A stretch of DNA of 64,000 nt, from positions 29,343 through 93,342 of the forward strand of contig CBFGUO010000018.1 in NCBI GenBank assembly GCA_965652375.1, read 5' to 3'. The notes under the pieces were generated by a model. It was not told the origin of the DNA. It ran no database searches and worked only from the letters and a program-made list of their open reading frames with translations. Below are positions 12,464 to 36,091 of the stretch, one piece after another (position 1 is the stretch's first letter; the number at the start of each line of letters is the position of its first letter). The stretch is from an uncultured Opitutus sp. Lineage in GTDB: Bacteria > Verrucomicrobiota > Verrucomicrobiia > Opitutales > Opitutaceae. Position numbers and translations under genes: made by a program.

Positions 12464-12466
12464 AAA

Positions 12467-13366
12467 ATGAACCTTCTTCTTACCGGCGGCTGCGGCTACA
12501 TCGGCTCGGCCTTCACTCAGACTCTCCTCGCTCTCGGGCACGAAGTGACGGTCATCGATGCCGGCTGGCACGGCTGCAACCTGCCGCCGCACCCTTACCT
12601 GACCCTGCAGCTGGTCGAGTTGCATCGCGCGCCGTCCCTTGATCTCACCGGCTTCGATGCGATCGTTCACCTGGCGGGGATCACCGATGCGGAAACCGCC
12701 TCGAGCAACGTCGACCTGGTTTGGGAGACCCAGGTCGGAGTCACGGCGATGCTGGTCGAACAAGCCATCAATGCCGGCGTGCCGCATTTCATCCATTGCA
12801 GTCCGGCGGCTTTGGGTGGTGAGCACGGGCGGGCGATCGCCCACGCCGAACGTCTGCTGTTGGGCTATCGCGACGAGCTCCGGGTCGACATCGTGCGTCC
12901 CGGTTACGTGTGTGGCGTGTCGCCCCGCATGCGCCTGGATCTTCCGCTCAATCTTTATGCGATGCAGGCGCTCACGCGCGGCCGCATCACGGTCGACGGG
13001 GCCACGGTGACCGCGCCGCACACTCACCTGCGGGATCTCATCCGGCTGTTCACGACGCTGCTCGAGCGCAGTTCGCTCCCGGCTGGGGTGCACGACGCCG
13101 GCTTCGAGACCTGCACGCACCTGGACCTCGCCCTGCGCGTCGCCGCCCAGATCCCGGCCGACATCGAACTTGCCGCCGATGCGACGGCGTATCCATTCAG
13201 CTCCGACAACGACAGCGACGTTCTCACCGGCCACGGTTTCCTGCCCACCTACACCCTTGATGACGCCATCTGGGAAATCGCCGCCGAATACCGCATGGGC
13301 CGCCTGCGCGACGAAGAGCGCTACTACAACGCCGGCGCCACCCGCGACCTCTTGCACGCAGCGTAG
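12467..13366 (+). CDS. Atypical extended-SDR (NAD-dependent epimerase/dehydratase fold) lacking the catalytic Tyr-x3-Lys
   Basis: MNLLLTGGCGYIGSAF Rossmann motif. The 299-aa sequence contains no lysine at all, so it has no YxxxK. The ORF-track start at 12371 is trimmed to the ATG at 12467. Confidence 0.7.
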   Translation: MNLLLTGGCGYIGSAFTQTLLALGHEVTVIDAGWHGCNLPPHPYLTLQLVELHRAPSLDLTGFDAIVHLAGITDAETASSNVDLVWETQVGVTAMLVEQAINAGVPHFIHCSPAALGGEHGRAIAHAERLLLGYRDELRVDIVRPGYVCGVSPRMRLDLPLNLYAMQALTRGRITVDGATVTAPHTHLRDLIRLFTTLLERSSLPAGVHDAGFETCTHLDLALRVAAQIPADIELAADATAYPFSSDNDSDVLTGHGFLPTYTLDDAIWEIAAEYRMGRLRDEERYYNAGATRDLLHAA

Positions 13367-13392
13367 GCGGTGTGTTGCCCGTGGCGCGGGCC

Positions 13393-14904
13393 TCAGGCCA
13401 CGGACGGCACCCTTTGCTCGATCGTCGGGGGTGGCGTCGGTTGAATGAAGGTGACCGGATCGACACCGATGCGCTCCGCGACCTGGGCGGCGTTGGCCAG
13501 CAGCTGACGCGAATTGACAGGATCAATGGTGCGCAGGTCGTGGCCGACCTGGGTCATGCCATCGCAGTAGATCCAGGCATCGTCCGCGTCCTTGGCTGCC
13601 TTGGCCGCCTCCACCAGAATTTGCACCGCCAGGATTTTGCGTCCTTGGCGAATCAATGCCTGCGCCTTGGCTCTCATTTTTTGTCGTTCCAGGTGTGCTG
13701 CGACAAACTCCGGATTGGGTGCCTTGTCGGGCGACCAGGCGGCCATGATCTGGGTCAGCGTTTGGGTGCGCTGGCGGGCGATCGTCGCCTTGTCGGGCGC
13801 ATCGCGCAGCCACTGTTTCAAATCTTCCCATAGCACGGGCCCAATAGCGTCGATATGATACCGTTCATCGACCAATGCCGCGGCGCGCATACCGATGGCT
13901 TGTGCCCCTTCCGGATCCTGCATGAGGTCGTACGTTTCACGGGCCAGCGCGGCGGTGTCGAGGTAGGGGACGACGCGTCCGCCGCCCAATTCGCAGAATT
14001 CCGGTCCGCCCCCGGCGCGGTCAAAGCAGAGCACGGGCAGCGTCAGCGCGGCGGCCTCGAGCATGGCGAGGGGGAAAGGATCCTCCCGCGATGTCATCCA
14101 GAACACGTTACCGAGCGACAGCAGGGCGTGGGGATCCGCCAACTCGCCAGCGAAGATCAAAGCGTCGCCCAGGCCGAGTTTCTCGGCGTCGCTGCGCAAG
14201 GTGAAGCGCATGCCGGCGTCCTTGCCCCCGCCGATCCACACGAAGCGGATGTCGCGGTCGGCGCCGGCGAGTTCCCTGAGTTGCTGCGCGGCGCGCGCAA
14301 ATACATCCACGCCCTTGCGCAGGTCGATCGTACCGCAGCCTATCACGATGAAGGCCTCGGCAGGCAACTGGAAGCGAGTGCGCAGGCCTGCCTCATCGCG
14401 AGCCACCGCTCGGCGACGAGCAAGGGTGGCGTCGATCATCTCGTAGTGCACGGCGATGCGCTCGACGGGGACATCAAACCGATGACTGAAGCTGCGGGCG
14501 ACCGCCCGGGCGCACGCGACAAACCGGGTGGTGTGCCGCAGCATGCGGGCGATGCGATGGGCACCGGTCCACTGATAGCCGCAGTCCAGTTCGTGGAGGT
14601 GCGTTACAACCGGCACGTCACCGATGCCGATCGAGTCGATGATCTCACCGCACAGGCAAGTGTTGGCGTAGATCAGGTCGTAGTGCGCCAGCGCGTTGGA
14701 ATGAGTGCGTAGTTCGGACCGATGCAGCACCCGGCCGGTCTCGGCGAAGTCGGCTTCGAGTGGTCCGCCTTTGCCCAGAAGAATCTCAAACTCGATCTCC
14801 ACCTGCGCTGTCCGCAGCCACCGCAGAAAATGCAGCAGGAACATGGGCGCTCCCGTGCGCGTGGCCTCGTGGGAAATAAAAAGGAGGCGCGGTCGCTGGG
14901 GCAT
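13393..14904 (-). CDS. GT4-family (GT-B) glycosyltransferase with a ~120-aa helical C-terminal extension
   Basis: RLLFISHEATRTGAP... and SREDPFPLAMLEAAALTLPVLCF GT4-type signature. The C-terminal segment RAKAQALIRQGRKILAVQILVEAAKAA...DLRTIDP is shared with the 15889-17079 product. Confidence 0.8.
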   Translation of the reverse strand: MPQRPRLLFISHEATRTGAPMFLLHFLRWLRTAQVEIEFEILLGKGGPLEADFAETGRVLHRSELRTHSNALAHYDLIYANTCLCGEIIDSIGIGDVPVVTHLHELDCGYQWTGAHRIARMLRHTTRFVACARAVARSFSHRFDVPVERIAVHYEMIDATLARRRAVARDEAGLRTRFQLPAEAFIVIGCGTIDLRKGVDVFARAAQQLRELAGADRDIRFVWIGGGKDAGMRFTLRSDAEKLGLGDALIFAGELADPHALLSLGNVFWMTSREDPFPLAMLEAAALTLPVLCFDRAGGGPEFCELGGGRVVPYLDTAALARETYDLMQDPEGAQAIGMRAAALVDERYHIDAIGPVLWEDLKQWLRDAPDKATIARQRTQTLTQIMAAWSPDKAPNPEFVAAHLERQKMRAKAQALIRQGRKILAVQILVEAAKAAKDADDAWIYCDGMTQVGHDLRTIDPVNSRQLLANAAQVAERIGVDPVTFIQPTPPPTIEQRVPSVA

Positions 14905-14931
14905 CGTTTGTGGTCGGGTTGAATGCTTCGG

Positions 14932-15873
14932 CTAGGCGGCCTGAGCCGAGGTATCTTCGATTGGCAGTTGGCGGGAATTGCATACGGCCGGTCGTCGCAA
15001 CACGCATTGCACGCTCGTTGTGGAGAGTTCTTCGTCGCTCATTTTTTGGAAGCGAGCACTCAAGTGCTTGCGGAAACCCGCCGGCATGGAGCCACGCGTG
15101 TTGCGATACTCGATGATTTCGAATCCGACGCGCTCAAAGTGAGGACGGATCTCGCACGAGCGCAAACGGTTCGTCAGCCCATCCGACCAGTTCTCATTTT
15201 CGGCCAGGAACGACCAAAAGTGGTGGTGTTTGCTCCCGTAGGCGCGGTGGTCAACGAGATCGATCAGATGAAATGCGACGCCGCCTGGTTTCAGGAGCTT
15301 GAACATGCGGTCGGCCGCCACGCCGAAGTCGAGAAAATGCTCCAATACTGCGCGAGACGTCATGATGTCGAACGATGCCTCGGCAAGCGCTGGACTGTGG
15401 ATGTCGGTCACACAATGCCGCATCGGTGTTCTGGCCACACCTGCCTTGAGGTTCCCAGCTTCCAAGGCGGCGAGATCGAACATGGCCAACCTCCGGAGGA
15501 ACTCTGCTCGAGGCAGATCACTCCAGTGCCAACGGTCGGGAAAAGCGAGGCAATCGCACAGAAGGTCGAAGAGCGCTTCCGCCGCGCGTTGTTCGGGGGC
15601 ATTTTCCAGGTCCAGCCCCAGCGTGCTTTCGGCGCCGTTGAGATACATCGCCGTGGAGATCCCGAACGGATGATACGTGCCGCAGCCGAGATCGCAGTAG
15701 TGTTTCCCGACGAGTGACACGAAGGGGGCGAGGTTGGAATACCCTTCGTAGGCCACCTCGTGAACTCGTCGCGGTGCGTGGCGCCATTCCGGTCGGGATC
15801 GAAGTTCACGGCGAAGGGCGGTGAATATGTTCTCCAGCTGGATCCAATGCATGGATTTGAGGTTCTGTGACAT
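14932..15873 (-). CDS. Class I SAM-dependent methyltransferase
   Basis: Motif I at YCDLGCGT, plus SRAVLEHF and LKPGGV. Confidence 0.75.
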   Translation of the reverse strand: MSQNLKSMHWIQLENIFTALRRELRSRPEWRHAPRRVHEVAYEGYSNLAPFVSLVGKHYCDLGCGTYHPFGISTAMYLNGAESTLGLDLENAPEQRAAEALFDLLCDCLAFPDRWHWSDLPRAEFLRRLAMFDLAALEAGNLKAGVARTPMRHCVTDIHSPALAEASFDIMTSRAVLEHFLDFGVAADRMFKLLKPGGVAFHLIDLVDHRAYGSKHHHFWSFLAENENWSDGLTNRLRSCEIRPHFERVGFEIIEYRNTRGSMPAGFRKHLSARFQKMSDEELSTTSVQCVLRRPAVCNSRQLPIEDTSAQAA

Positions 15874-15888: not shown

Positions 15889-17079
15889 TTAGGCGGCTTG
15901 TTTGAGATGGGCTGAGAGCTTGTCGGCCTGTTCCTTGATCAGTAGTGCACGGGTGGGATCGAGTGATCGCAGGTCGAGGAAAACCATCTTCAGGGTTTCC
16001 AGTAGAAAGTGCGGCTCCTTCAATCCGGCTGCGGCCTGTGCGAGCTTGAGAAGCAGATCGACTGCTTCCTCTCGGCGTCGCTGGCGGACGAGTTGCTTCG
16101 CCTGAGCCCGGGCCTGCTGGAGTTGTTGGCGGCAGAGGTCAAGGGGGGAGGGGGCGGGACGGACCAGCGCCGGCCAGATCTTCCGGAAGGCCTCCGGTGC
16201 GAGGCGGCAATCGGCCCCGATCAGGGCTTCGCCGGTTGTCACATCGGTGACGCCATCACGCGGTGCCGCGCGGAATCGTTGGAGGAAAGCCTCCTGTTTC
16301 TGCAACACCTCGTCGGCCAGCAACGCGTTGAGCCGGCCTGGATGCTGCGACCAAGTGGAATCGCGACTCAGTTGCTCGGCCCCGCGCTGCGGCTGGGTGC
16401 CGTGGACGGACAGGCGGGCGCCAAAGGCAAGGGCGTAGGGCACGTGGCTGCCCCAGCCGTTGGTCGTGACGCATTCAAACTGCTCAAACAGGACACGCAT
16501 ACGCACCAACGCGTGGCGGTCGTTGACCTGGGCGCCGTCCACGATGGCGAACCCATAGCGTGAAAATTCGTCGATCCACAGGCCGTTGCGGCGGCAGTCC
16601 GGGTGCACGCAAACGGCGATTTGGTCGAAATCGCCCGCGATGGCGTGGATCTCCTCTGCATAGCGGGCAAAGGCTGTGCGATCGGGGTAGGACTCCCCCG
16701 TCAGTGTGTGGGTCGGCATCACTAGCAGGCTCCGCGGCAAACGGGTGACGCCGGTCGGCCGGGTGTAGGTGATTGGCAAACCGATGGCCTGGGCCCGCTT
16801 GAATCCGGCGGCGCGCAGCAAGGCGGCTTGATCCGGCCGGCCGACCAACACCGGCCGATCCTGCGCCTGCGGGGCGTTGTAAACCAGCGGCTCCGCGGCG
16901 ACGCCGTGCCACGGGGCGAAACACCCGTGCTGCCAGATCGCGCCGATTTCGAAATGCTCCGGCAGCGTCATACCGGCGTAGGCCGCCGCGACGTGCAGGG
17001 CGCCGTAGTGATCGCTCCAGCCGTCCTCATGACGGCCGCGATGGGCGAAGGGAACAACGTCGGGCAGTTGGACGATCAT
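15889..17079 (-). CDS. Unknown enzyme-like protein (possible nucleotide-sugar transferase) with the shared C-terminal helical module
   Basis: 396 aa after trimming to MIVQLPDVVPF (a TGATG overlap with the upstream stop). The central region reads LLVMPTHT...QIAVCVHPDCRR...TTNGWGSHVPYAL. No family recognised. Confidence 0.6.
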   Translation of the reverse strand: MIVQLPDVVPFAHRGRHEDGWSDHYGALHVAAAYAGMTLPEHFEIGAIWQHGCFAPWHGVAAEPLVYNAPQAQDRPVLVGRPDQAALLRAAGFKRAQAIGLPITYTRPTGVTRLPRSLLVMPTHTLTGESYPDRTAFARYAEEIHAIAGDFDQIAVCVHPDCRRNGLWIDEFSRYGFAIVDGAQVNDRHALVRMRVLFEQFECVTTNGWGSHVPYALAFGARLSVHGTQPQRGAEQLSRDSTWSQHPGRLNALLADEVLQKQEAFLQRFRAAPRDGVTDVTTGEALIGADCRLAPEAFRKIWPALVRPAPSPLDLCRQQLQQARAQAKQLVRQRRREEAVDLLLKLAQAAAGLKEPHFLLETLKMVFLDLRSLDPTRALLIKEQADKLSAHLKQAA

Positions 17080-18002
17080 CAGGCGGCGGACGGGACAATG
17101 GCGTTGGCGACCACGGCGTGCTCGGCGCGAAGCAGCGGAATGTCGCGAAGAACTGGATACGCCAGACCGGCGCCTGCGCTTACGTAGGCATCGGGGCCGG
17201 CGGTCACCGGGGTGCCGGTGAGGGGACACTGCCATGGCGACGCGGGAGCCGGGTTGGCGTGGCGCGGAGCCGGTTCGATGGTCACCACGCCACTGGGGTT
17301 GAGCGGGTTGGCCACATGCTCCAGCAGGCGCGGTTCACCGACGCGGGCGCCGAGGGATTGCGCCGTCGCCGCGAGATCGCGCACGTAACCGTGGGAGCGC
17401 ATGCGGGCCTGGGCTTCCGGCGGCGCGAGTTCGTAGATGGGTTCGACGAGCACGACGGCGCGGCGGGCCACCCGCAGCAGTTCACGCAGGGCCGCCTCCT
17501 CGCGGCCGCCATTGGGCTCGAGGGAATGCGAGGTATACACCACATCGATACTCTGGTCCGCGAACGGGAGCGTGAACAGGTCGCCGACGACCAGCCGGGC
17601 GTCGACCCCCTGTTCGCGCAGCCACGCCCGGCCGACGGAGCACCGGGACCAACTCAGGTCGAGACCGTGAACGGTGTCCGGTATCGCGGGGAGCTTATTC
17701 ACGACGCCAGCCAGGGTGGTGGCTTCGCCGCAACCGACTTCGAGCAGGGAGGCGCCGTTTTCCGCCCACGGCGCGAGCAGGTCGGCCAGTTGCCGGGTCC
17801 AACGTTCGGCGTAATCCGGATTGGCGCGCATGCCGGCGACGTAGGAGCCGGCCTGCAGGTCGTAGGCGACGAGGGTGGCGACCATGCTGTTGCTCCCGGC
17901 ACCGGTCGTCGCGCGAGCGAAGGCCATGGCGTTTTCGCCGCGTTGGTAGGCGGCGCGCATGCCGGTGATGAGGTGAGCGAGTTGGGGAGCGTCGGAAGTC
18001 AT
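17079..18002 (-). CDS. SAM-dependent methyltransferase fused to a C-terminal Trm112-like domain
   Basis: LLEVGCGEATTL motif I. The C-terminus reads WQCPLTGTPV...LAYPVLRDIPLL, a Trm112/UPF0434-like pattern. Confidence 0.75.
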   Translation of the reverse strand: MTSDAPQLAHLITGMRAAYQRGENAMAFARATTGAGSNSMVATLVAYDLQAGSYVAGMRANPDYAERWTRQLADLLAPWAENGASLLEVGCGEATTLAGVVNKLPAIPDTVHGLDLSWSRCSVGRAWLREQGVDARLVVGDLFTLPFADQSIDVVYTSHSLEPNGGREEAALRELLRVARRAVVLVEPIYELAPPEAQARMRSHGYVRDLAATAQSLGARVGEPRLLEHVANPLNPSGVVTIEPAPRHANPAPASPWQCPLTGTPVTAGPDAYVSAGAGLAYPVLRDIPLLRAEHAVVANAIVPSAA

Positions 18003-18020: not shown

Positions 18021-18701
18021 TTAGTTGATTTCCCGCACGAGTTGGTAGGCCTCGGCGGCGGGCAGGTGGGCGACGCTGCCCCAGCGCTGGGCGGCCGCAC
18101 GGATCACTGCCGGAGAGCGCGGATGTGGGAAGGGCTGCACCTCGCTCTCGTAGATGTTCATGGCGGCGATCTTCTTCTCGAGGTGGTCGGCGATGTTAAA
18201 GAACACCTGGGGCTGAAACCGTGGCTCAAACTGCTGAAAACTCCACTCGGTGGAGGAACCGACTTCGTAGGCGTAAACCCGTCGCACCGGACAACGGCCG
18301 GTGGGCCGGGTGGCGGTGAGCGTGGCGCGGAAGGTGATCACGTGATCCTGGTTCAGGTCGCCGCCGTGTTGGGTGAAGACGATTTCGGGCTGCACGCGCA
18401 CGATCTCACGCTCGATAGTCTGGGTCACGTCCAACAGTGGGACGGTGTCCATCTTCTGATCGGGATATCCCGCAAGTTGCACGCCCTGCGCGCCCAGCAG
18501 TGCGGCGGCGCGACGGCTGCGTTCATGGTGCACTTCAAGTTGGCCCGCGTCCCTGGCGGGATCGAAGTCCGCGCGCGAGGTCAGCCCATTGGCAAGAATG
18601 AGCACGTGGATGCTGGCGCCTTCGGCCGCCAGGCGGGCGATGGTGCCGCCGCAACCGAGGACTTCGTCGTCGGGGTGGGCTGCGATCACGAGCACGTTCA
18701 T
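18021..18701 (-). CDS. PIG-L/LmbE-family N-deacetylase
   Basis: MNVLVIAAHPDDEVLGCGG signature. The ORF-track start is trimmed, giving an ATGA overlap with the pseI stop. Confidence 0.8.
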   Translation of the reverse strand: MNVLVIAAHPDDEVLGCGGTIARLAAEGASIHVLILANGLTSRADFDPARDAGQLEVHHERSRRAAALLGAQGVQLAGYPDQKMDTVPLLDVTQTIEREIVRVQPEIVFTQHGGDLNQDHVITFRATLTATRPTGRCPVRRVYAYEVGSSTEWSFQQFEPRFQPQVFFNIADHLEKKIAAMNIYESEVQPFPHPRSPAVIRAAAQRWGSVAHLPAAEAYQLVREIN

Positions 18702-19786
18702 GCCGCGGCCTCCAGGTCGTTCCAGCTCAAGGGAGTGCCCCGCGGAAGGTCGCGGGTGGCGACCCGACCCAACACGGCGTCCCAATGGCGCGGCTCCAGG
18801 CCGTGGGCCGGCCGCACGATGCGCAGGTTGTCGGGGTTGAGCGGTTCACCGGCCTTGACGTCGCGCGCGACGAAGATCGAGCGGCGGAAACCCCGGTTGG
18901 CTTCCTCCTTCGGTGACAGCGCGTAGCTCACGTCCCCCAGGGCCTGCTCGGCGGTGCGCACCGCGTCGACCATGGCGCGGAACTCGGCCGGCTCGAGCGA
19001 GAAGGCGCGGTCCGGGCTGGGATCGAGGCGCGAGAGGGTGAAGTGTTTTTCAATGATGTTCGCGCCCAAGGCCACGGCGGCCACCGGGGCGGCGATGCCG
19101 AGCGAATGGTCAGACAGGCCGGCGACCACTTGATGGGTTTGGGCGAGATCCTGAATCGTCCGCAGGTTCATGGTGTGCACGGGCGCCGGATACGCACTGG
19201 TGCACTTGAGCAGCGCGAGCTGGCGGCCCCCAGCGTCGCGAAACGCGGCCACGGCCTCGGCGATCTCGGCGGGCGTCGCCATGCCGGTTGACATGATGAC
19301 GGGCTTGCCGGTGCGCGCGATCCGACGGATCAGCGGCAGATCGTTGGCCTCGAACGAGGCGATCTTGTGCGCCGGCACGTCCATGTCTTCGAGAAACTCG
19401 AGGGAACTGTCGTCGAACGGAGTCGAGAAACAGTGTAGCCCCAACGATTCCGCCAATGCCTTCAAACGCGGCTGCCAGTCCCAGGGGGTGTAGGCCTCGC
19501 CGTAAAGGTCATGCAGGTGACGCCCGGACCAAAGCGACTCGCCCTGGATCTCAAACAACGGACTGCGCACGTCGAGCGTCATGGTGTCGGCGGTATAGGT
19601 CTGCAGTTTGATAGCATCGGCGCCCGCATCCTTGGCCGCCCGCACGATGTCGGCCGCGCGCGTGAAGCTCTGGCCGTGGTTGCCGGACATTTCGGCAATG
19701 ATGTAGGTCGGCTGCCCCGGACCGATGGGGCGACCGGCGACTGCAAAGGAAGGGTCGCAGGCTGCGACGGGAGCGGTGCGCATCAT
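18698..19786 (-). CDS. pseI: Pseudaminic acid synthase (NeuB family)
   Basis: TYIIAEMSGNHGQS...DAIKLQTY NeuB core plus a C-terminal SAF domain (RSIFVARDVKAGEPL). Assigned to Pse because pseG and pseH are present. Confidence 0.85.
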   Translation of the reverse strand: MMRTAPVAACDPSFAVAGRPIGPGQPTYIIAEMSGNHGQSFTRAADIVRAAKDAGADAIKLQTYTADTMTLDVRSPLFEIQGESLWSGRHLHDLYGEAYTPWDWQPRLKALAESLGLHCFSTPFDDSSLEFLEDMDVPAHKIASFEANDLPLIRRIARTGKPVIMSTGMATPAEIAEAVAAFRDAGGRQLALLKCTSAYPAPVHTMNLRTIQDLAQTHQVVAGLSDHSLGIAAPVAAVALGANIIEKHFTLSRLDPSPDRAFSLEPAEFRAMVDAVRTAEQALGDVSYALSPKEEANRGFRRSIFVARDVKAGEPLNPDNLRIVRPAHGLEPRHWDAVLGRVATRDLPRGTPLSWNDLEAAA

Positions 19787-28682: not shown

Positions 28683-29579
28683 TCAGGCGGCGCGGCGTTG
28701 GTTCAGGCGCGCTCCGATGACGGTGAGGCAGGCGCGTTCGTTGAGGTGCCGGGTCTTGACTTCGGGCAAACCGGTGAGTTGGCCGGCGATGTGTCGCAGG
28801 GAGAACAGCCGGGCTTCGGCCAGCAGGTCGGCGGGCAACACGATCTCGGTCTCGGTATCCCGCGTGAGGACGGTCAGGCGCTCCGCCTCCTGCACGGTGG
28901 TAAAGGTCGCCCGACGGCGGTCCACGCCCCACGGACTGGCGTGGGCGAGATAGGCGTTGCGCATCTCGTTGTAGAGGGGATCACGTTCGATGCGGGCGGC
29001 GACGTTGGAGGCAGGAGCGACGTCAAATTGATTGGAGACGCGCTCCTCCTGCGTGTGGTCGATGAAGTCGAGCAGGTCGGGCGTGATTTCCTCACGCGCG
29101 AATCCGGCAGCGATGAGCCGGTCATAGAAATCCTCATCGTCGCGGCCGTAGGTACGGATGATTTCCGAGTAGCCGTTCACAGCCTCGAACTGGTCCTTGC
29201 TGAAGAAGCACTGGCCGTTGACGGAAGGTTTTCCGACGGCTGAACCCGACCGCCAGTGCCCGGCGCGAAAATGAGCGGCGTCCGGAGTGAGCTGGAGCAG
29301 GCTGGCCTGCGGCAGGCAGTCGGCGTCGCACTTGAGGATGAGCGGTTTGGTGGCGTGCCGGACTCCGATGTTGTAGGCGTAGGAGAGGATCCAGCGCGGT
29401 TCGTCGGTCACGCGCACGATGCGCACCCGCGGGTCGAGGTCGCGCAGGTCGTCGAGCGGACGGTCGTTCGACCAGTCGACGACGATGACTTCGTCGATGC
29501 CCGCCAAGCCCAGCCAGTGCGGCAGCGAGCGGCGGAGGTGCTGCTCGCGGTTTTTGCAGGCGGTGACGAGGGAAACCAT
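28683..29579 (-). CDS. GT2/GT7-like glycosyltransferase
   Basis: VSLVTACKNREQHL..., CDADC (DxD-like) and YGRDDEDFYDRL, as in galactosyltransferase-C-type domains. Confidence 0.65.
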   Translation of the reverse strand: MVSLVTACKNREQHLRRSLPHWLGLAGIDEVIVVDWSNDRPLDDLRDLDPRVRIVRVTDEPRWILSYAYNIGVRHATKPLILKCDADCLPQASLLQLTPDAAHFRAGHWRSGSAVGKPSVNGQCFFSKDQFEAVNGYSEIIRTYGRDDEDFYDRLIAAGFAREEITPDLLDFIDHTQEERVSNQFDVAPASNVAARIERDPLYNEMRNAYLAHASPWGVDRRRATFTTVQEAERLTVLTRDTETEIVLPADLLAEARLFSLRHIAGQLTGLPEVKTRHLNERACLTVIGARLNQRRAA

Positions 29580-29603: not shown

Positions 29604-31967
29604 TTAACCGGCGATTTCGAATCGGCCGTCCGGATCACTCGGCGGCAACGTGGTCAGGAAGTCGGTGACGCGGGGGTCATGGGCGGCGACCTGGTTGAGC
29701 ACCTCGACAATCTGGCCGAGCAGCTCCGTGTGATTCGCATCGCGCGCCAGCTCACCGAGCATGAGCCAGGAATCGAGGTCGGTCGTGTTGAGACGGATGG
29801 CGGTTTCGAGCGCGGTGATGGCGTCGGCCGGGTTGCCCGATTGGGCGAAGGCAGTGGCGAGTTCGCGCCAGATGGCGGCGCCGGCTTCGCCACTCTGAAC
29901 CACGCCGAGCAGATAGAGAGCGGCACGATCGTGGCGCTGCAGCGCGGCGCTGGCTCGGGCCATGATGAGCCGAGCGGTCTCGGATTGAGGCAAAACGCCG
30001 AGCACACGTGATGCCTGAGCGATTGCATCGTCCGGCAGGCCTGCTTCCAGGAGGCTCGCCGCGGTGGCGAGGGCGGTGTCATTATCCTCGTCCAGGCCGG
30101 CCGTCAGGATCTCACGGTTGGCGCGGAATCCCTGAGGACCGGCCTCGCTGAGCGTTTCGTAGGCGTGCATGACCAGGGCGGCGAACGCATCGCTGGCGGC
30201 GAGCGAGTCGAGGAACGCCGGAGTGCCGTTCATGGCAGTGCGGAGCCGTGTGACCAGGGCGGCGCGAGCGCTTTCGTCGGCGGCAAGCGCCGCAGCGCGA
30301 GTGAGGGCCTCGTCGGCGTTCTGAAAAACGCAGTCGTCGAGGTCCAGGGCGCGCAACAGGCCGGCGGTGCGTCGGGAGCGTCGGGTCGGGCCCTCCCGGG
30401 TCAGCACCGGCAGGCGAGCGTGCAGGGCCACCAGGGCGGCGTGATCATCGGCAACCGGATAGGTGTCGAGATAGAGGTCGGCGAGTTGCAGCAATCCGGC
30501 AAGATCGGTGAGCGAATCGGGCGTATCGGTCACGATATGCAGGCGTTCGGCGGTGACACCCACCGCGGCGAGTGCATCCAGAAAGCGTGACTCGAGCTGG
30601 TCGTTGGACAGCTCTTCGGCCATGGGCCGGAAAACGATGAGATGGGAGTCCGGCGTCGCGGCGAGCAGGCGCGCCCATTGCTCTCGAACTTCCGCGGTGA
30701 GGCAGGGCGTGGCAGCGGCGCTGGTGAACACCACGGCATCCGTCGGAATGTCGAGGGCGTCACGGCTCCAATGCGGTTCGCTCGGCTCGTTGAGTTCTGC
30801 GCCGAAGGTGTAGGCCGTGCCCGTGCCGGGCAACAAGGCGAGGCGTTCGCTGTAGTCCGCTCCGGGATCGTCGGTCCGCTCAGTTCGGTCACCGGAAATA
30901 AACAAATCGATTTCCGGCAGGCCGGTGGTGGCGGGGCAGAGGGGAGTGGCGACCTGCAGCGGCGCCACGCGATGGGAGGCGAGCACGGCGAGCTGATCGT
31001 TTGCGGTGCTGAGGTCGCCGGCGAACACCAGCACGTCGAGGCCGGCGAGTTGCAGCGTCGAAAGCTGCCCGGAGAGATCGGTGCCGAGTGGATTGTATTC
31101 CGAAGCCCGCAGGCGGCAGTGGGTCGCGAACTCGTCGTTGGCGTCTTCGAGCGGGAAGAGCGCGAGTTCGAAGCGCTGCGGATCGAGGTTTTCGAACAAC
31201 GGCAGCGTGGCAAAGGTCTCGAATGAAGCGCCGAAGGAGTGGGCGACGAATCCGAGACGCAGCGGCCGACCGAAGAGCGCGAAAGCCTCCGGCGGAATCG
31301 CATTGCGGGCGTCGGTGCTCAGGATGCGCTTCAGGATGCGACCGCGGGCTTCGGCATGTCGCCGCAGGTTGCCGGATCCCGCGATCAGCGGAGTGAGGTT
31401 GCCCACCTCGAGATAGGCGGTGACGGCGGCCCGAACTGCGGCGGAACCGCCGTTGCGCTCCACCCACTTGGCGAGCGACTCCAGACGAGGCAGGATGGCG
31501 TCGGCATAACGATCGGCGTCGCCTACCTTCACGAAGGCATGCGGAGGCGCGAAGGACCAGCGGGCATAGGTTCCCAGCAGCGCGTTGGGCACCGCGTCGA
31601 ACTCGGGGGCGTGGGTCCAGCGCCAGGCCGGAGCCAGCAGCATGCCGGCCACCAGCGAGCTCGCGCCGGAGCCTTGGCAGCGCTCGAGCAGGGCGGCTTC
31701 CTCGGAGTCGTGCGGCAGGTCATGCAGGGGGCTGGTGACTACGGCTTCCAGATTGCCGAGAATGGACGCCGCCAGCGGATCGCGCTCGGTTCCTTCGAGA
31801 ACGGCGCGGGCCAGGTCGAGCCGCGCGGTGCGGAACGTGGCGATGGCGGCTGGATCGGTGGGGGCGGACGCAGCGGCCAGGAGGGCGGCTTCAAAACGGG
31901 TGGTAAGCAGGGACGTGGCGCTGGGCGCAGAGACGACCTTGGAAGCGGCGGCGACGGGCAAAATCAT
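29604..31967 (-). CDS. Divergent GT41/SPY-like glycosyltransferase with permuted architecture (TPRs at the C-terminus)
   Basis: 787 aa. The middle region is homologous to the two neighbours (RLGFVAHSFG...LPLFENLDPQRFEL...; FTSAAATPCLTAEVREQWARLL...), but it has YPVADDHAALVALHARLPVL where they have YHGTTTTCEALWMGRPVV. TPR-like helices occupy the last ~170 aa. Confidence 0.7.
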   Translation of the reverse strand: MILPVAAASKVVSAPSATSLLTTRFEAALLAAASAPTDPAAIATFRTARLDLARAVLEGTERDPLAASILGNLEAVVTSPLHDLPHDSEEAALLERCQGSGASSLVAGMLLAPAWRWTHAPEFDAVPNALLGTYARWSFAPPHAFVKVGDADRYADAILPRLESLAKWVERNGGSAAVRAAVTAYLEVGNLTPLIAGSGNLRRHAEARGRILKRILSTDARNAIPPEAFALFGRPLRLGFVAHSFGASFETFATLPLFENLDPQRFELALFPLEDANDEFATHCRLRASEYNPLGTDLSGQLSTLQLAGLDVLVFAGDLSTANDQLAVLASHRVAPLQVATPLCPATTGLPEIDLFISGDRTERTDDPGADYSERLALLPGTGTAYTFGAELNEPSEPHWSRDALDIPTDAVVFTSAAATPCLTAEVREQWARLLAATPDSHLIVFRPMAEELSNDQLESRFLDALAAVGVTAERLHIVTDTPDSLTDLAGLLQLADLYLDTYPVADDHAALVALHARLPVLTREGPTRRSRRTAGLLRALDLDDCVFQNADEALTRAAALAADESARAALVTRLRTAMNGTPAFLDSLAASDAFAALVMHAYETLSEAGPQGFRANREILTAGLDEDNDTALATAASLLEAGLPDDAIAQASRVLGVLPQSETARLIMARASAALQRHDRAALYLLGVVQSGEAGAAIWRELATAFAQSGNPADAITALETAIRLNTTDLDSWLMLGELARDANHTELLGQIVEVLNQVAAHDPRVTDFLTTLPPSDPDGRFEIAG

Positions 31968-31980
31968 GGTGCGTGCCCGG

Positions 31981-31996: not shown

Positions 31997-32146
31997 ACAG
32001 ATTCTACACGATATGTAAGTGACGGAAAATCAACCGGAAGAAAATCAAACAGCTTGCTCCGGGAGGGCAGAAATCGGCCCGACAACATTCCAAGGACCGG
32101 GATCGGCAGGTTTTGCCTGCGGAGGGGGAAAGGTCGGGGGCGCCGA

Positions 32147-32235: not shown

Positions 32236-34152
32236 TCAGGCGACGGCGACGGCTACGGCGGCGGTCGCTTGGGGGGCGGCGGCGTTGAGCCAGAGGTGGC
32301 GGAGGGTGGCGCCGAAGCGGGCGGCCTGGCCGGCGTGGTCCATGAGCGGGCTGGCCTGCAACTCGGCGCGGAGGCCGGTGCTGAGGCGTGCAAGTTTTTC
32401 TCGGTCGGTGATGAGTTCGCGGGCGATGCGCAGGTAGTCGTCGGGATTGGCGGCGATCCACTCGGGGTGGCCCACGGCATTCAGTAGGGAGACGCCGACG
32501 CGGTTGGCGTGACGGTCGCCGGCGAGCGTAACGACCGGGCGTCCCATCCAAAGGGCTTCACAGGTAGTGGTCGTCCCGTGGTAGGGCAGCGGATCGAGCG
32601 CGACATCGATTTCCCGATAAAGTGCAAGGTGGCTCATCGTGTCGGACGTGCGGCCGCGCAGATCCAGGCGGGCGGTGTCGATACCGTGGGCGGCAAAGCG
32701 GCGGCGCACGGTGTCGGCGAGGTCGGTTTGCTCGAGACCGGCGCTCTTGAGCACGAGGCGGCTCGCGGGGACCTGGTTGAGGAGCTGCGACCAAAGCGCG
32801 ATCGTGGCGTCGCTCACCTTGGTCAAGGCATTGAACGAGCCGAAGGTGGGCGGGCGGGCAGGCGGCACGGCGACGGGCGGCGGTGCGACCGAAGTCTCTG
32901 CCTCGGGCGGCGGCGCGTAGGACCAGAGCGTATCGGCAAAGCGAACGAGTTGTTCGCTCGCTCGCGCCTCGCTGGCGGGCTCGATCGGATCGGTGTAGGC
33001 GTCCACGAGACGGTAGTCCATCGACGAGAGGCCGGTCGTGTCGGGGTAGCCGAGGTAGTTGATCTGGAGCGGGGCGATGCGGCGCGCAAAGACGCCGAGG
33101 CGGTGTAACCCGGTGTGACCGGCGAGATCGATGGCCAGGTGCGGGCGGAGGGCGCGCAGGCGTTGGGTTACGGCAGCGTCGGACTGACCGTGAATGTTTT
33201 CCCAATGGTCGGCGAGCTGGCGGAGGGTTTGGGAAATGTCGTCCTCGAGGTGGTGATCGTGGAGGAGGAGGATCTCGAAGGCGTCGCGATCGAGGTGCTG
33301 GAGCAGCGGCAGGAGAAACCAGGCCACCGAGTGCCGGCGCAGGTCCTGAGAGATGAAGGCCACGCGCAGACGGGACGGGGCGGGAGCGTCGGGTTGCAGG
33401 CGCAGGCTGGCGGTCGTGCGGTCCTCGAGTGGCGCGAGTTGCTCGCCGAAGGCGCGATGCTCGGTGGCGAGCTGCGCGGGGGTGATGTCGTCGAGGTAGT
33501 GCAGCGTGAGCAGGCGTCCGCTGCGGGCTTCGAGGTCGTGCGGATCGAGGGCGAGCGCGGCGCCGAAAGCGGCGGCGGCTTCGGGCAGCCGGTAACTTTG
33601 CTGCAGGAGCAGGGCGCGGGCGGTGTGCGCCTTGGGCAGGGCGGGATCGAGCGTGAGCGCACGATCGAGCGCGGCCTCGGCCGCGGCCAGCTCGCCGGTG
33701 TAGACCAGCGCGATCCCGAGGTTGCACCAGGCTTGCGGCCAGTCGGGGTTGGCGACGGTGGCGGCGCGAAAATGCGGCACGGCGGCGGCGTGCCCGTGGG
33801 TGATCAGCGTGAGCGAGCCGAGCCGATCGTGCGCTTCGGCATGACGTGCATCGGCCTGCACGGCCGCCTGGAATGCGGCGCCGGCCTCGACGAGACGGCC
33901 GAGTGCCTGGAGGGCGATGCCGTGACGCATGGCGCAGGTGGCATCGGCGGGCTTGAGCTGTCGGGCGCGCGCGAGGAGGTCGAGGGCGAGGCGCGGACTG
34001 TTGCGCTGCAATTCCAGGGTGCCGGAGAGGTGCCAGGCATCGAAGGCCTGCGGGGCGAGGCGGCGCACCTGCGCGTAGTCGCGTGCGGCCGCGTCGAACT
34101 GGCCGGCGCGGTGCGCGGCAAAGGCGCGCTGGAGAAGCTGGGCGGGGGTCAT
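32236..34152 (-). CDS. TPR + GT41 (SPY/FlmG-like) protein glycosyltransferase
   Basis: 638 aa after trimming to MTPAQLLQRAFAAHRAGQFD. N-terminal TPRs are followed by YLGYPDTTG, FGSFNALTKV and LDPLPYHGTTTTCEALWMGRPVVTL. Confidence 0.8.
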   Translation of the reverse strand: MTPAQLLQRAFAAHRAGQFDAAARDYAQVRRLAPQAFDAWHLSGTLELQRNSPRLALDLLARARQLKPADATCAMRHGIALQALGRLVEAGAAFQAAVQADARHAEAHDRLGSLTLITHGHAAAVPHFRAATVANPDWPQAWCNLGIALVYTGELAAAEAALDRALTLDPALPKAHTARALLLQQSYRLPEAAAAFGAALALDPHDLEARSGRLLTLHYLDDITPAQLATEHRAFGEQLAPLEDRTTASLRLQPDAPAPSRLRVAFISQDLRRHSVAWFLLPLLQHLDRDAFEILLLHDHHLEDDISQTLRQLADHWENIHGQSDAAVTQRLRALRPHLAIDLAGHTGLHRLGVFARRIAPLQINYLGYPDTTGLSSMDYRLVDAYTDPIEPASEARASEQLVRFADTLWSYAPPPEAETSVAPPPVAVPPARPPTFGSFNALTKVSDATIALWSQLLNQVPASRLVLKSAGLEQTDLADTVRRRFAAHGIDTARLDLRGRTSDTMSHLALYREIDVALDPLPYHGTTTTCEALWMGRPVVTLAGDRHANRVGVSLLNAVGHPEWIAANPDDYLRIARELITDREKLARLSTGLRAELQASPLMDHAGQAARFGATLRHLWLNAAAPQATAAVAVAVA

Positions 34153-34175: not shown

Positions 34176-36074
34176 CTAAGCCGCGGCGGCGTGGGCTGGC
34201 AGCTCCGCGACTTCGCCGTGCCAACAGGCTTCGAGGGCGGTGGCGAATCGGCGGGCTTGACCGGCGTGATCGAGCAAGGGCGAGGCCTGCATGGCCGCGC
34301 GGAGCGTGCGCGTTTGCAGGTCGCGCAGGGCGTTGCGATCCGCCGCAAGTTGGCGGGCGAGGTCGATGTAGTCCTCTTCGCTGGCGGCGATCCACTCGGG
34401 GTGGCCGATTGCGGAAAGGAGGGAGGCGCCGACGCGGTTGGCGTGGCGTTGGCCGGCGAGGGTGACCACGGGGCGGCCCATCCACAGGGCTTCGCAGGTG
34501 GTGGTCGTGCCGTGGTAGGGCAGGGGATCGAGCGCGATGTCGATCCCGGCGTAGTCGGCGAGATGGCCGGCGGTGTCGGGCCGGCTGGGCAGAACCTCGA
34601 TGCGCGCGGGGTCGATGCCGGCCCGGCCGGCCGCGGCGCTTGCGGCCTCCGGCGACAGGCCGGGGCTCTTGAGCACGAGGCGGGAGCCGCGCACGGCCTT
34701 CAAAACCTTTGCCCAGACTTCGAGGGTGCGTGGGGAGACTTTGGCAAAGTTGTTGAAGGAGCCGAAGGTGAGGGGTCCGCCGGCGGCGCCCGGTCCGGGC
34801 TGCGGATCGCCGGCTTCGGGCGGCGGCTGGTAGGCCCAGGCGGTGGAGGCGAAGCGCACGCGGGTTTCGGTGGTGTGCGGGCAGGCCTGGTCGGCCGGAT
34901 CGGTCACCGCATCAACGAGGCGGTAGTCGATCGCGGGCACGCCGGTCGTGTCGGGGTAGCCCAGGTAGGTGAGTTGCACGGGGGCGATGCGTTCGGCGAA
35001 GGCGGCGAGACGATTGCCGCCGGTATGGCCGCCGAGTTCGACGGCGAGGTCGAGGGCGTCGGCGCGGGCGACTTTCACGAAGTCGGGTACGGAGAGTGAA
35101 ACGGTTTCACGCCAGACATCGGCCAGCTGCCGGAGCTCGGCGGAAATCTCGTCGGTGATCCCGTGATCGTGGTAGAGCGTGATTAGGAAGCGGCTGCGGT
35201 CGAGGTGGCGCAGGAGCGGCAGCATGAACCAGGCGACGGAGTGCCGGCGAAAATCGGCCGAGACGAAGCCGATGCGCAGGCGACGGCCGATGGAGGAGCG
35301 GGCGGTGAGCCGGTGCGCCTTGGGGAGGGCGGAGCGCCAGGCGGACAGGGCGGCGGCGTGCGCGGCATCGTCGCGCTCGTCGAGGTATTGCCGGCACAGC
35401 AGGCGGGCGCTGTGGGCGGCGAGGTGGCCGGGTTCGCGGCGCAGGTGTTGATCGTAATCCGCGAGCGCCTCGGGCAGGCGGTGCAGTTGCTGCAGGGCGA
35501 TGGCGCGGCCGTAACGAGCCCGCGGATACGGCTGCCGCGCACCGAGGGCGGCATCCTGCGCGGCGAGACCGGCGGCGGGTTCACCGAGCAGGCAGTGGGT
35601 TTGCCCGAGGTTGTAGGCGTACTGGCCGTTGGCCGGCTCGATGGCGGCGGCCCGGCGGTGGCATTCCAGGGCCTCGGCGATGGCGCCACGGGACTTGAGC
35701 ACGATGCCCAGATTGTCCCAGGCCTCCGCCATGGGTGGTTCGGAGTCCGTGAGGGCGCGCAGGCGTTGTTCGGCGGCTTCGAGGCGACCGGCGGCGCGCT
35801 CGGCCAGGGCGAGCCGGAGGAGGCAGACGCGGTCGCGCGGGCTGACGCGGTGCGCGGCGGAGAGCAGGCGCAGGGCCTGGTCGGAGTTGCCCTGCTGAAG
35901 GGCCACCAGGCCGCTGAGATGCAGGGCATCGAAGTTGCGCTGATCCAGACGCAGGACGGCTGCATAGCGGGCGGCGGCGTCGGCGAGTCGGCCGGCCCGG
36001 TGGAGGCGCAGGGCATCCTGCAGCAGCGAGGTCACGGAGGTTGGAGTAGGCACTATCACCCGGGTGATCGGCAC
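34176..36074 (-). CDS. TPR + GT41 (SPY/FlmG-like) protein glycosyltransferase, tandem paralogue
   Basis: Same architecture and a near-identical C-terminal GT region. The ORF-track start (GTG at 36074) lies inside the predicted sigma-28 -10 box, so the true start is probably an in-frame GTG at 36053 or 36035. Confidence 0.8.
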   Translation of the reverse strand: MPITRVIVPTPTSVTSLLQDALRLHRAGRLADAAARYAAVLRLDQRNFDALHLSGLVALQQGNSDQALRLLSAAHRVSPRDRVCLLRLALAERAAGRLEAAEQRLRALTDSEPPMAEAWDNLGIVLKSRGAIAEALECHRRAAAIEPANGQYAYNLGQTHCLLGEPAAGLAAQDAALGARQPYPRARYGRAIALQQLHRLPEALADYDQHLRREPGHLAAHSARLLCRQYLDERDDAAHAAALSAWRSALPKAHRLTARSSIGRRLRIGFVSADFRRHSVAWFMLPLLRHLDRSRFLITLYHDHGITDEISAELRQLADVWRETVSLSVPDFVKVARADALDLAVELGGHTGGNRLAAFAERIAPVQLTYLGYPDTTGVPAIDYRLVDAVTDPADQACPHTTETRVRFASTAWAYQPPPEAGDPQPGPGAAGGPLTFGSFNNFAKVSPRTLEVWAKVLKAVRGSRLVLKSPGLSPEAASAAAGRAGIDPARIEVLPSRPDTAGHLADYAGIDIALDPLPYHGTTTTCEALWMGRPVVTLAGQRHANRVGASLLSAIGHPEWIAASEEDYIDLARQLAADRNALRDLQTRTLRAAMQASPLLDHAGQARRFATALEACWHGEVAELPAHAAAA

Positions 36075-36091
36075 CGCAGGCCCCAGCTTTA
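36065..36091 (-). promoter_or_regulatory. sigma-28 promoter at the head of the glycosylation operon
   Basis: Reverse strand reads TAAAGCTG-gggcctgcggt-GCCGATCA (6/8 and 7/8, N11). Confidence 0.6.

Follow-up and report, generated by a model that had tools for sequence, protein, structure and literature searches.

What is made by about 24 kb of sugar genes that stand directly behind two flagellin genes, and to what is the product attached? The question is raised by a stretch of 64,000 nucleotides from an uncultured Opitutus sp. (Verrucomicrobiota, Opitutaceae; GenBank assembly GCA_965652375.1, contig CBFGUO010000018.1, positions 29,343 to 93,342), here called the window, which has a G+C content of about 66% and the numbering of which is used throughout. 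The 21 genes concerned, designated g01 to g21, span 12467-36074 and very probably serve to modify flagellin. On balance, they are best read as an island for the O-glycosylation of flagellin in the cytoplasm of an Opitutaceae bacterium, a system of a known kind that is organized in two tiers: a pair of transferases related to SPINDLY and OGT, and an operon of sugar-synthesis, tailoring and transfer genes, referred to as the cargo. Large and tailored flagellin glycosylation islands are unsurprising in themselves, and it is the link to glycosyltransferase family 41 (GT41) and the exchange of the cargo between relatives that are noteworthy.

Genes were called with a third-position GC filter, translations and start-codon trimming. 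The arrangement given in the original prediction was confirmed: g01 alone is encoded on the plus strand, the other 20 genes (g02-g21) being on the minus strand. Overlaps were counted at 10 of the 19 minus-strand junctions, namely seven through ATGA (4 nt), two through TGATG (1 nt) and one by 8 nt. The sole long gap in the minus-strand run, 268 bp, separates g20 from g19. The leaders upstream of the island genes are C-rich and contain no Shine-Dalgarno motifs. On one side the island is flanked by genes for a response regulator, CheX, a sigma-54 activator, FliS, FliD and the two flagellins (Pfam), and on the other by genes for an HDOD protein, two PAS histidine kinases, CheA, CheD and CheR, beyond which lie a FlgB-like rod protein, FliF, FliG, FliH, FliI, FlgD, a hook/rod protein, FliL and FliM. 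Flagellin A (9769..10584, plus strand, 271 amino acids (aa); Pfam Flagellin_N and Flagellin_C), the presumed glycosylation target, has 22.5% Ser+Thr, and the translated flagellin B (10837..11652, plus strand, 271 aa) is 80% identical to it by BLASTP. Both are Ser/Thr-rich, as had been noted before (22.5-22.9% overall), with 21 such residues among the central 71 of one and 25 among those of flagellin B. As 815 bp separate flagellin B from the start of the island, the glycan genes are physically linked to the flagellins within a flagellar locus, and the same linkage is present in related loci.

A profile search with Pfam detected no Wzx, Wzy, Wzz, ABC-transporter or initiating-transferase domain in the island or the rest of the window, and MAF_flag10 (DUF115) had no match among the 49 window proteins scanned, so that the absence of lipid-carrier, export and Maf genes reported earlier stands for both. 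No convincing transmembrane segment was found in the island, the maximum of the 19-residue hydropathy average being 1.65. By this gene content, the route appears to be cytoplasmic and to operate without a lipid-carrier initiating transferase, flippase, polymerase or exporter.

The two genes that head the block, g21 (34176..36053, minus strand, with an open reading frame (ORF) extending to 36074) and g20 (32236..34152, minus strand, 638 aa), encode full-length paralogues sharing 48% identity. Each has tetratricopeptide repeats (TPR) over approximately residues 1-230, followed from about residue 260 to the end by a SPINDLY/OGT-type GT41 domain of GT-B fold (PF13844; Pfam E = 3e-42 for g21 and, together with a TPR match, 4e-35 for g20), a domain order that matches the FlmG class. 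The best solved relative of the pair in the PDB is Arabidopsis SPINDLY (E = 1.6e-105), and bacterial and human OGTs come next. In a GT41 alignment including g20 and g21, the motifs GYPxTTG, FGSFNNxxK and HGTTTT are invariant and the conserved Lys is kept. In structural work on OGT, this Lys and HGTTTT bind the diphosphate of nucleoside diphosphate (NDP) sugars; cytidine monophosphate (CMP) sugars have one phosphate.

The best matches of g04, g21 and the pseudaminic acid (Pse) synthase PseI (g07) were in Opitutaceae and other Verrucomicrobiota. The closest genomes proved to be a metagenome-assembled genome (MAG; locus L165) and Actomonas aquatica (locus L166), in which the CheA, histidine kinase, HDOD, g21, g20 and g19 genes are collinear with the window and the conserved part has about 80-87% nucleotide identity. 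Protein identities to L165 and L166 were 95% and 88% for the HDOD protein, 84% and 78% for g21, 77% and 72% for g20, and 43% and 44% for g19. Past g19, both relatives have GmhA-, HldD- and HldE-like genes (ADP-heptose-type), a methyltransferase gene and a GT4 gene, where the window has g18, g17 and pseB. No PseI from the L165 and L166 contigs was among the 120 best PseI matches, the top one of which (75%) was on an unrelated 11-kb contig, nor was a g04 homologue from these contigs present among 66 g04-family matches. The nearest relatives of the cargo were found elsewhere, with 80% identity for the PIG-L protein and 79% for g09 in a metagenome locus (L002), and 77-79% for PseB in L008, L013 and L087.

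A frame of the type HDOD, one to three TPR-GT41 genes, g19-like gene, GT4, PseB, PseC and so forth, flagellins, FliD and FliS recurs in Opitutaceae. In Nibricoccus sp. IMCC34717 (L024), just two TPR-GT41 genes lie between the HDOD gene and four flagellins, and TPR-GT41 genes were found directly beside flagellins in L001, L002, L024, L043, Terrimicrobiaceae, another Verrucomicrobiae MAG and one Desulfobacterota locus. Because the relatives share the frame and the GT41 genes but differ past g19, comparison of these loci identifies the HDOD-flagellin stretch as a conserved Opitutaceae slot in which the GT41 pair is the apparently stable core and the sugar cargo is exchangeable. In the synteny comparison that had been proposed with the original prediction, the GT41 genes thus recur with the flagellins and the cargo varies. 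The island of L087, with Pse genes and g04, ends at the flagellins with no TPR-GT41 gene within 21 kb, though this locus may stop short of the far end of the island. A 349-365-aa protein without Pfam match, which has no counterpart in the window, is encoded between the g04/glycosyltransferase region and the flagellin side in L002 (11271-12344), L001 (13666-14763) and L087 (13837-14886).

The TPR-GT41 proteins had been equated with the FlmG pseudaminyl-transferases. This equation is not supported: they are of the SPINDLY/OGT type and their orthologues are kept with a heptose-type cargo, a pattern that speaks against a strict specificity for Pse without disproving it. As the GT41 pair is near-unchanged beside heptose cargo and closely resembles SPINDLY and OGT, which use NDP-sugars, the model favoured here, tentatively, is that the pair adds a common priming sugar from an NDP-sugar and that g04 adds Pse. 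A FlmG-like arrangement is nearly as likely, at somewhat less than even odds: g21 and g20 would attach a tailored Pse directly to Ser/Thr, maybe one enzyme per flagellin paralogue or site, and g18, g17, g04 and g02 would extend it in the manner of Aeromonas Fgi-1. The GT41 domain close to plant SPINDLY, with its diphosphate-binding Lys and HGTTTT, speaks for an NDP-sugar instead, as do the orthologues with 72-84% identity beside heptose-type genes in genomes from which no PseI or g04 homologue was among the matches listed, and the two GT41 genes of Nibricoccus, between HDOD and flagellins, without any cargo. On the other hand, a single TPR-GT41 gene stands beside flagellins and nonulosonate genes in the islands of L001 and L002, and PseB and PseC are encoded a few genes past GT41 in L008, L013 and L015. 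Precedent also favours direct attachment: FlmG, which has the same TPR plus GT-B architecture, transfers Pse directly (PMC7591256), and in all flagellin systems with nonulosonates that have been characterised, it is the nonulosonate that is joined to the protein (Campylobacter, Aeromonas, Shewanella and Caulobacter; PMC7874193; bioRxiv 10.1101/2023.12.03.569772). FlmG itself, however, has been described as restricted to Caulobacterales (bioRxiv 10.1101/2023.12.03.569772).

The third GT41-like protein, g19 (29604..31967, minus strand, 787 aa), is encoded by the first gene of the operon behind the sigma-54-type promoter and gave a weak Pfam GT41 match (E = 1.4e-7). About 220 N-terminal residues, forming a helical region, precede a degenerate GT41-like domain, which shares 28% identity with its counterpart in g21, and the TPR are at the C-terminus. 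In the window protein 'VADDHAAL' replaces 'YHGTTTTC' and 'SAAATPC' replaces 'SFNNFAK'; alignment with homologues from related loci disclosed that HGTTTT is missing across the whole g19 family, and the window member also lacks the Lys of FNNFAK. Because the motifs that bind phosphate in OGT are missing, g19 probably either serves as a scaffold or adaptor without catalytic activity, or is a glycosyltransferase that uses a different donor. The count of three TPR+GT41 proteins given earlier is thus retained in part: g20 and g21 are canonical, while g19 has the reverse domain order and no nucleotide-binding motifs, and of the three only g20 and g21 look catalytic. Single ORFs in which a g19-like protein is fused to a g17-like GT4 occur in L011 (13021-16629) and L015 (3160-6600), a g04-like domain is joined to a g19-like protein in L102 (3770-7096), and in L043 (1081-7881) a 2261-aa ORF has an N-terminal part that is GT4/GT2-like by eye and a C-terminal part that matches g19. 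Such gene fusions appear to tie g19 to the cargo transferases.

Two promoter types accompany the two tiers. The g21-g20 pair is headed by the sigma-28-type promoter TAAAG-N14-GCCGATCA (36065-36091, minus strand), one mismatch from the consensus TAAA-N15-GCCGATAA. A scan of the window for this consensus with at most two mismatches gave six matches, whereas 0.96 would be expected by chance, and intergenic minus-strand sites were located at 3358-3384, before the cheX/response-regulator operon, and at 7031-7057, before the operon of a 92-aa ORF and fliS, so that several of the late flagellar and chemotaxis operons of this stretch seem to rely on the sigma-28 consensus. Both hexamers are kept in L165, with a different spacer. 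In L166 the -10 element GCCGATC is kept and the -35 is degenerate, and a stop codon comes after the equivalent GTG, with which the -10 overlaps. Conservation of GCCGATC merely as coding sequence for the N-terminus was ruled out, this segment being non-coding in L166, with a stop codon in frame. Since the -10 overlaps GTG 36074 and is non-coding in L166, the start of g21 is probably not that codon but GTG at 36053, about 4 nt past the expected transcript start.

The second promoter, the sigma-54-type TGGCAC-N5-ATGCA (31982-31997, minus strand; consensus TGGCAC-N5-TTGCA, with a GG-N10-GC core), is 14 nt 5' of the g19 ATG. Two perfect 19-bp palindromes, TGTCACC-N5-GGTGACA (32153-32171 and 32196-32214), each within an exact 27-bp repeat and 43 bp apart, sit 155-230 bp upstream of this site and are presumed to be activator binding sites. 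The sigma-54 site and its 14-nt spacing to the ATG are kept in both L165 and L166; upstream of their g19 orthologues there are one perfect and one imperfect dyad in L165, and three copies in L166. The promoter assignments made earlier, sigma-28 at the head of the block and sigma-54 with a duplicated dyad inside it, were thus borne out by conservation of both promoters. In L166 (Actomonas aquatica, CP139781), a unit of about 270 bp with one TGTCACCCATTAGGTGACA dyad is present three times in tandem (14100-14990), which gives a g20-g19 intergenic region of about 1.2 kb. Sigma-54-like sites were also seen 5' of g19 homologues in L063 and L026, and flgB is headed by one (51127-51142), likewise 14 nt from the ATG. 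The g19 dyad had no other occurrence in the remaining approximately 2 Mb of fetched loci. A candidate for its binding, by proximity only, is the sigma-54 activator encoded at 3557-5278. Because the minus strand from g21 to g18 showed no terminator-like site, read-through from the sigma-28 promoter is possible. Three promoter-like sites abut start codons (31967-31997, 36053-36091 and 51127-51159), the -10 of the sigma-28 site ending 11 nt before GTG 36053; transcripts from these three sites would be nearly leaderless, which fits the missing Shine-Dalgarno motifs.

The flagellin genes have a different upstream region. Directly 5' of each ATG there is a common purine-rich leader (ATCAAGGAAGATACC at 9750-9768 and ATCAAGGAAAGATAATACC at 10815-10836), which, in contrast to the leaders of the island genes, resembles a Shine-Dalgarno or CsrA-type A(N)GGA site. 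Neither flagellin gene has a clean sigma-28 match 5' of it, and for flagellin A there is only TAAAG-N14-TCCCGTAA. The non-coding gap between flagellin B and the island (11653-12466) contains two hairpins (11697-11744 and 11823-11864), short G-rich repeats (11875-11930), a 31-nt direct repeat (at 11928 and 11996) and, at 12235-12250, a weak sigma-54-like site. When the whole window was compared with Rfam, no family reached the gathering threshold. At the other end of the island, the HDOD gene at 36113-37117 is divergent from g21, a pairing kept in most of the Opitutaceae loci examined, and brackets the PAS histidine-kinase/CheA block together with a second HDOD-domain gene at 45360-46361.

Which sugar does the cargo provide? 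All six enzymes of the Pse pathway exceeded the curated equivalog cut-offs of NCBIfam, namely PseI (g07, 18698..19786; TIGR03586, 464.5 bits, the cut-off being 340), PseH (g12, 22815..23387; TIGR03585, 125 against 93), PseG (g13, 23387..24424; TIGR03590, 193.5 against 153.6), the CMP-Pse synthetase PseF (g14, 24417..25106; TIGR03584, 282 against 205.7), PseC (g15, 25103..26314; TIGR03588, 467 against 423.5) and PseB (g16, 26340..27446; TIGR03589, 520 against 407.8), all encoded on the minus strand. The pathway to CMP-Pse5Ac7Ac (the 5,7-di-N-acetyl form) is therefore complete, in agreement with the original prediction.

The remaining families named there were likewise recovered by profile search (Pfam/NCBIfam). 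Placed between the pse genes on the minus strand are those for an acyl/peptidyl carrier protein (ACP; g11, 22558..22818, 86 aa), an adenylate-forming ligase (g10, 21239..22561, 440 aa; Pfam AMP-binding and AMP-binding_C), a FabG-like short-chain dehydrogenase/reductase (SDR) of the 3-oxoacyl-ACP reductase type (g09, 20502..21242) and a short Fmt-like protein (g08, 19783..20505, 240 aa). The PP-binding match of g11 is slightly below the cut-off (E = 0.0013), but the protein has the GLDSLG phosphopantetheine motif and an 85-aa homologue at the equivalent position in L002. The best PDB match of g10 is DltA, a D-alanyl carrier protein ligase (E = 6e-15), and g09 gave a Pfam adh_short match (E = 1.8e-51) while remaining under the NCBIfam FabG equivalog cut-off. 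In g08, a strong match of the C-terminal domain (Formyl_trans_C_2, E = 2e-20) is accompanied by a weak N-terminal one, the position of the formyltransferase catalytic Asn is occupied by Cys in 'VCFHMTD' (read by eye), and the nearest solved structure is the uncharacterised 1ZGH (E = 1.3e-60); it is presumed to be an N-acyl or N-formyl transferase. The same strand also encodes a PIG-L-family de-N-acetylase (g06, 18021..18701, 226 aa; E = 1.4e-26) and two S-adenosylmethionine methyltransferases, g03 (14932..15873, 313 aa; Methyltransf_23/11) and g05 (17079..18002, 307 aa; Methyltransf_25/11). On the plus strand and convergent with g02, g01 (12467..13366, 299 aa) encodes an SDR of the NAD-dependent epimerase/dehydratase family (Pfam Epimerase, E = 2.9e-14) without NCBIfam equivalog.

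Beside g04, three further transferases belong to the cargo, all on the minus strand: g18 (28683..29579, 298 aa), which is GT2/GT7C-like (Pfam Glyco_transf_7C, E = 7e-9; Glycos_transf_2, E = 4e-8), and the GT4 enzymes g17 (27466..28632, 388 aa; Glycos_transf_1 and Glyco_transf_4) and g02 (13393..14904, 503 aa; Glycos_transf_1). The C-terminal helical tail of g02 is related to that of g04 (residues 408-465 against 321-378, 34% identity, E = 4e-5), and TPR or TPR-like modules thus occur on five of the seven transferase-like proteins: at the N-terminus of g20 and g21, at the C-terminus of g19, and as the shared C-terminal tail of g04 and g02. It might be argued that the glycan is nonetheless a single heavily tailored Pse, N-acylated and methylated, and that the extra transferases are inactive, redundant or for other substrates. 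The flagellins of Shewanella and Aeromonas group I do bear single large Pse derivatives, with ACP, ligase and reductase genes, and g19 already appears non-catalytic; but g18, g17, g04 and g02 have intact family signatures and are translationally coupled or tightly packed, and multi-glycosyltransferase islands of Aeromonas correlate with oligosaccharides. This alternative is considered unlikely, and the glycan is reasonably expected to be larger than a single Pse.

If the glycan contains more than one sugar, the enzyme that transfers Pse has to be sought among these proteins, and attention is drawn to g04 (15889..17079, minus strand, 396 aa), which had no match in Pfam or NCBIfam. Its AlphaFold2 model, computed from a 34-sequence alignment, has a mean predicted local distance difference test score of 94 and ends in a TPR-like tail of four helices (the last 85 residues). 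All Foldseek matches are GT-B proteins (SenB, TagF, SdgB, UDP-N-acetylglucosamine 2-epimerase, MGD1 and WaaA), with probabilities up to 1.0 and low TM-scores (0.25-0.32), as two-lobed folds would give; a g04-family profile run against the PDB sequences found chance-level helical matches only, so that the GT-B kinship emerged by fold comparison alone. The idea that g04 is a hidden Maf was rejected, the fold being GT-B and not the sialyltransferase-like GT-A. In the original prediction this 396-aa protein was called unknown and enzyme-like: the second term is apt, and the first no longer applies to what is predicted to be a GT-B enzyme of a large family enriched beside nonulosonate genes. The exact sequence is not on record and a scan of the genome collection with g04 alone gave no relative; the family was reached through a protein search and a metagenome scan, and when 1.84 billion cluster representatives were searched with a profile, 1292 members were retrieved with a threshold of E<=1e-3 and 495 with E<=1e-30. 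One member, P0043, has recognisable TPR repeats in its C-terminal region, and multidomain members join the domain to GT4, methyltransferase or GT41, the same partners as the neighbours of g04 in the window.

The genomic company of the family is informative. The g04 homologues of Lacunisphaera (L001) and of the metagenome relative L002 belong to nonulosonate islands and have a TPR-GT41 gene and flagellins for neighbours; that of L003 comes after a NeuB-type gene, in a polysaccharide locus of the Wzt/ABC type where flagellar genes were not detected, and in an Oligoflexia contig (L004) it adjoins a NeuB cluster. Homologues of NeuB-type or cytidylyltransferase genes were present in 13 of 29 g04-family loci, namely those of at least 8 kb among 80 metagenome loci, versus 3 of 65 TPR-GT41 loci (Fisher p = 7e-6). 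A nonulosonate gene lies less than 1.5 kb upstream of g04 in 6 of 40 cases, a low figure obtained by a rule that drops short contigs beginning inside NeuB, hence the use of the whole-locus count; NeuB is directly upstream of g04 at the start of the short contigs L089, L090, L118, L119, L134 and L160. The order PseI, PIG-L, g04 is kept in L002, L086, L088, L089, L090 and L093, and with a g02-like GT4 added it recurs in the nearest relatives, L088-L093; in the window, two methyltransferase genes are inserted within this PseI-PIG-L-g04-g02 module. It is hypothesised that g04 is an enzyme of glycosyltransferase-like type whose gene is apt to accompany nonulosonate pathways. Among the cargo proteins it is the strongest candidate for the Pse transferase, an assignment for which the odds are a little under even. 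In L001 (8769-11209), tandem g04 paralogues of 402 aa each stand after HisH/HisF-like genes and before a GT4-GT2 fusion, and that island also has an ATP-grasp ligase and a Gfo/Idh/MocA oxidoreductase, i.e. a different nonulosonate tailoring set.

The loci L003, with its Wzt-type ABC transporter, and L004 are polysaccharide loci of non-flagellar kind, Pse is found in capsules and O-antigens, and in some Aeromonas strains the flagellar island also makes O-antigen (PMC7874193). From this it could be supposed that the g19-g02 cargo makes lipopolysaccharide, capsule or a donor for general protein glycosylation, and that its flagellar neighbourhood is coincidental. The window offers very little room for this explanation, which we judge highly improbable: the island encodes neither an initiating transferase, a flippase or a polymerase nor an ABC transporter or any membrane protein, its synteny with flagellins is kept across Opitutaceae, its transferases carry TPR modules, and its sigma-28- and sigma-54-type promoters match those of the cheX, fliS and flgB operons.

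Gene content, protein families, conserved promoter motifs and the variability of the cargo suggest the following course of events, of which flagellin as the substrate, the order of transfer, the acyl group and the regulators are what we infer. In the first tier, g21 and g20 would be expressed late, together with flagellin, from the sigma-28-type promoter, bind the Ser/Thr-rich flagellins through their TPR and begin O-glycosylation. In the second, the 18-gene operon g19-g02 would be transcribed from the sigma-54-type promoter with its dyads and would make CMP-Pse5Ac7Ac. The PIG-L protein g06 would strip an acetyl group and so free an amine, g10 would load a small acid on g11, g09 would reduce the 3-oxo group and g08 would transfer the acyl group, the expected substituent being 3-hydroxyacyl or aminoacyl, while g03 and g05 would methylate. 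The soluble g18, g17, g04 and g02 would then extend the glycan directly on the protein, with g19 as a scaffold that brings the cargo transferases to flagellin.

Besides the precedent for a nonulosonate as linking sugar and for direct transfer by FlmG, several observations weigh against this reading. Neither fliA nor rpoN is within the window. About half of the long g04-family loci are without a detectable nonulosonate gene, the probes being window proteins. The absence of Pse from Actomonas is taken from 10 kb of flank and the 120 best PseI matches, and is not proof. Literature searches gave no work on flagellin glycosylation, and no experimental datum, for Verrucomicrobia. Finally, the dyad is absent near the other window promoters, including the sigma-54-like site of flgB, and a second, related dyad pair, 53-56 bp apart and with no obvious sigma-54 core, stands 5' of the hldE-like gene in L165 (18446-18517; TGTCACTTAG(C/T)AAGTGACA) and L166 (19179-19253; TGTCACGTATTACGTGACA). 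As the dyads are missing at other flagellar promoters and present at hldE without a sigma-54 site, their regulator may not be a flagellar enhancer-binding protein. Of the view that the island is wired into the flagellar hierarchy, the different promoter types at its head and in its interior have stood, whereas the wiring itself is an inference, for the activator of a dyad that is absent elsewhere in the window need not be flagellar. In L165, a GCCGATCT element is located 8 nt 5' of the ATG of the hldE-like gene.

How does the island compare with known systems? The glycosylation of flagellin has been studied in depth in some Proteobacteria and Firmicutes, few in number, where two classes of transferase are known, Maf and FlmG. 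The OGT/SPINDLY family is responsible for nucleocytoplasmic O-GlcNAc and O-fucose signalling in eukaryotes; its bacterial members, to our knowledge, are mostly without known substrates. In Campylobacter jejuni and C. coli, a large hypervariable locus beside the flagellins combines pse and tailoring genes and leads to diverse N-acyl derivatives of Pse and legionaminic acid (Leg), the transferases being of the maf family and the glycans monosaccharides. A GT41 gene, a GT4/GT2 extension set or a division between sigma-54 and sigma-28 is not known from that locus.

By transferase architecture, g20 and g21 appear closest to FlmG, and by sequence to SPINDLY/OGT. In Caulobacter, FlmG binds flagellin through its TPR, has a GT-B domain, and is necessary and sufficient for the transfer of Pse (PMC7591256); the TPR is the flagellin-binding element in both FlmG and Maf-1 (PMC7591256; bioRxiv 10.1101/2023.12.03.569772). 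The FlmG systems of Caulobacter crescentus and Brevundimonas subvibrioides (PMC7591256; bioRxiv 10.1101/2022.03.25.485807) share with the present one a soluble enzyme with N-terminal TPR and C-terminal GT-B domain, a Pse or Leg pathway and several flagellin paralogues. Compared by the description given of FlmG, g20 and g21 differ in being clearly GT41 and SPINDLY-like, in forming a tandem pair and in being kept where the cargo is heptose-type; Caulobacter has only a monosaccharide Pse derivative, and its genes are dispersed. The FlmG papers specify only 'GT-B', with no GT41 assignment, and the genome scan with the GT41 alignment gave no Caulobacter locus.

SPINDLY and OGT (Arabidopsis SPY, PDB 7Y4I/8DTF; human OGT; Xanthomonas XcOGT) have the same TPR plus GT41 organization and the same GYPxTTG, FGSFNNxxK and HGTTTT motifs, and directly O-glycosylate Ser/Thr of soluble proteins from a nucleotide sugar. 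The window enzymes differ in their setting, a flagellar locus, and in their coupling to a cargo for nonulosonates and glycan extension. No report of a GT41/SPINDLY enzyme acting on flagellin was found in the literature searches, the nearest GT41 case being the Ogt of Synechococcus, which modifies pilin (PMC9306852). By the evidence of this locus, a phylum of environmentally abundant bacteria may use OGT/SPINDLY-type enzymes for flagellin instead of Maf or FlmG, and, if flagellin is the substrate, bacterial GT41 enzymes and their targeting by TPR become directly testable. It is conceivable, although rather less than probable, that Verrucomicrobia represent a third class of flagellin glycosylation beyond Maf and FlmG, with GT41 primers, a plug-in cargo, a dead GT41-TPR scaffold (g19) and nonulosonate transferases of the g04 family that are also found in non-flagellar polysaccharide loci. 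The conserved core with swappable cargo would provide natural experiments, e.g. Pse versus heptose cargo behind near-identical core enzymes, and together with a candidate new family of nonulosonate transferases this layout would be useful for cytoplasmic protein glyco-engineering.

The original prediction knew of no characterised system with a similar gene complement; one does exist, as the closest characterised analogue by this measure appears to be the Aeromonas group II island (A. piscicola AH-3), which builds a heptasaccharide on a Pse derivative and comprises pse, ACP, 3-oxoacyl-ACP reductase, AMP-dependent synthetase and many glycosyltransferase and methyltransferase genes; in this genus, islands rich in glycosyltransferases correlate with oligosaccharide glycans (PMC7874193). 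Like the window, it has the island downstream of the flagellins, a content that varies between strains, soluble transferases and methyltransferases, and its components are met here as pse (g07 and g12-g16), ACP (g11), reductase (g09), AMP-ligase (g10) and transferases (g02, g04, g17 and g18). Unlike the window island, in which Pfam found no LuxC-, LuxE- or Maf-type domain, it includes luxC and luxE (acyl-reductase and acyl-protein synthetase genes) and Maf-type (GT-A) transferases, maf-2 among them. A further mark of group II is the transferase gene fgi-1. The window in turn differs from it in the two TPR-GT41 proteins, the degenerate GT41-TPR protein, the GT-B enzyme g04, the Fmt-like and PIG-L proteins, and in the phylum. 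What distinguishes the locus described here is thus the SPINDLY-type core with its degenerate GT41-TPR partner, the g04 GT-B family, the cassette-like exchange of cargo, and the sigma-28/sigma-54 pair with near-leaderless transcripts.

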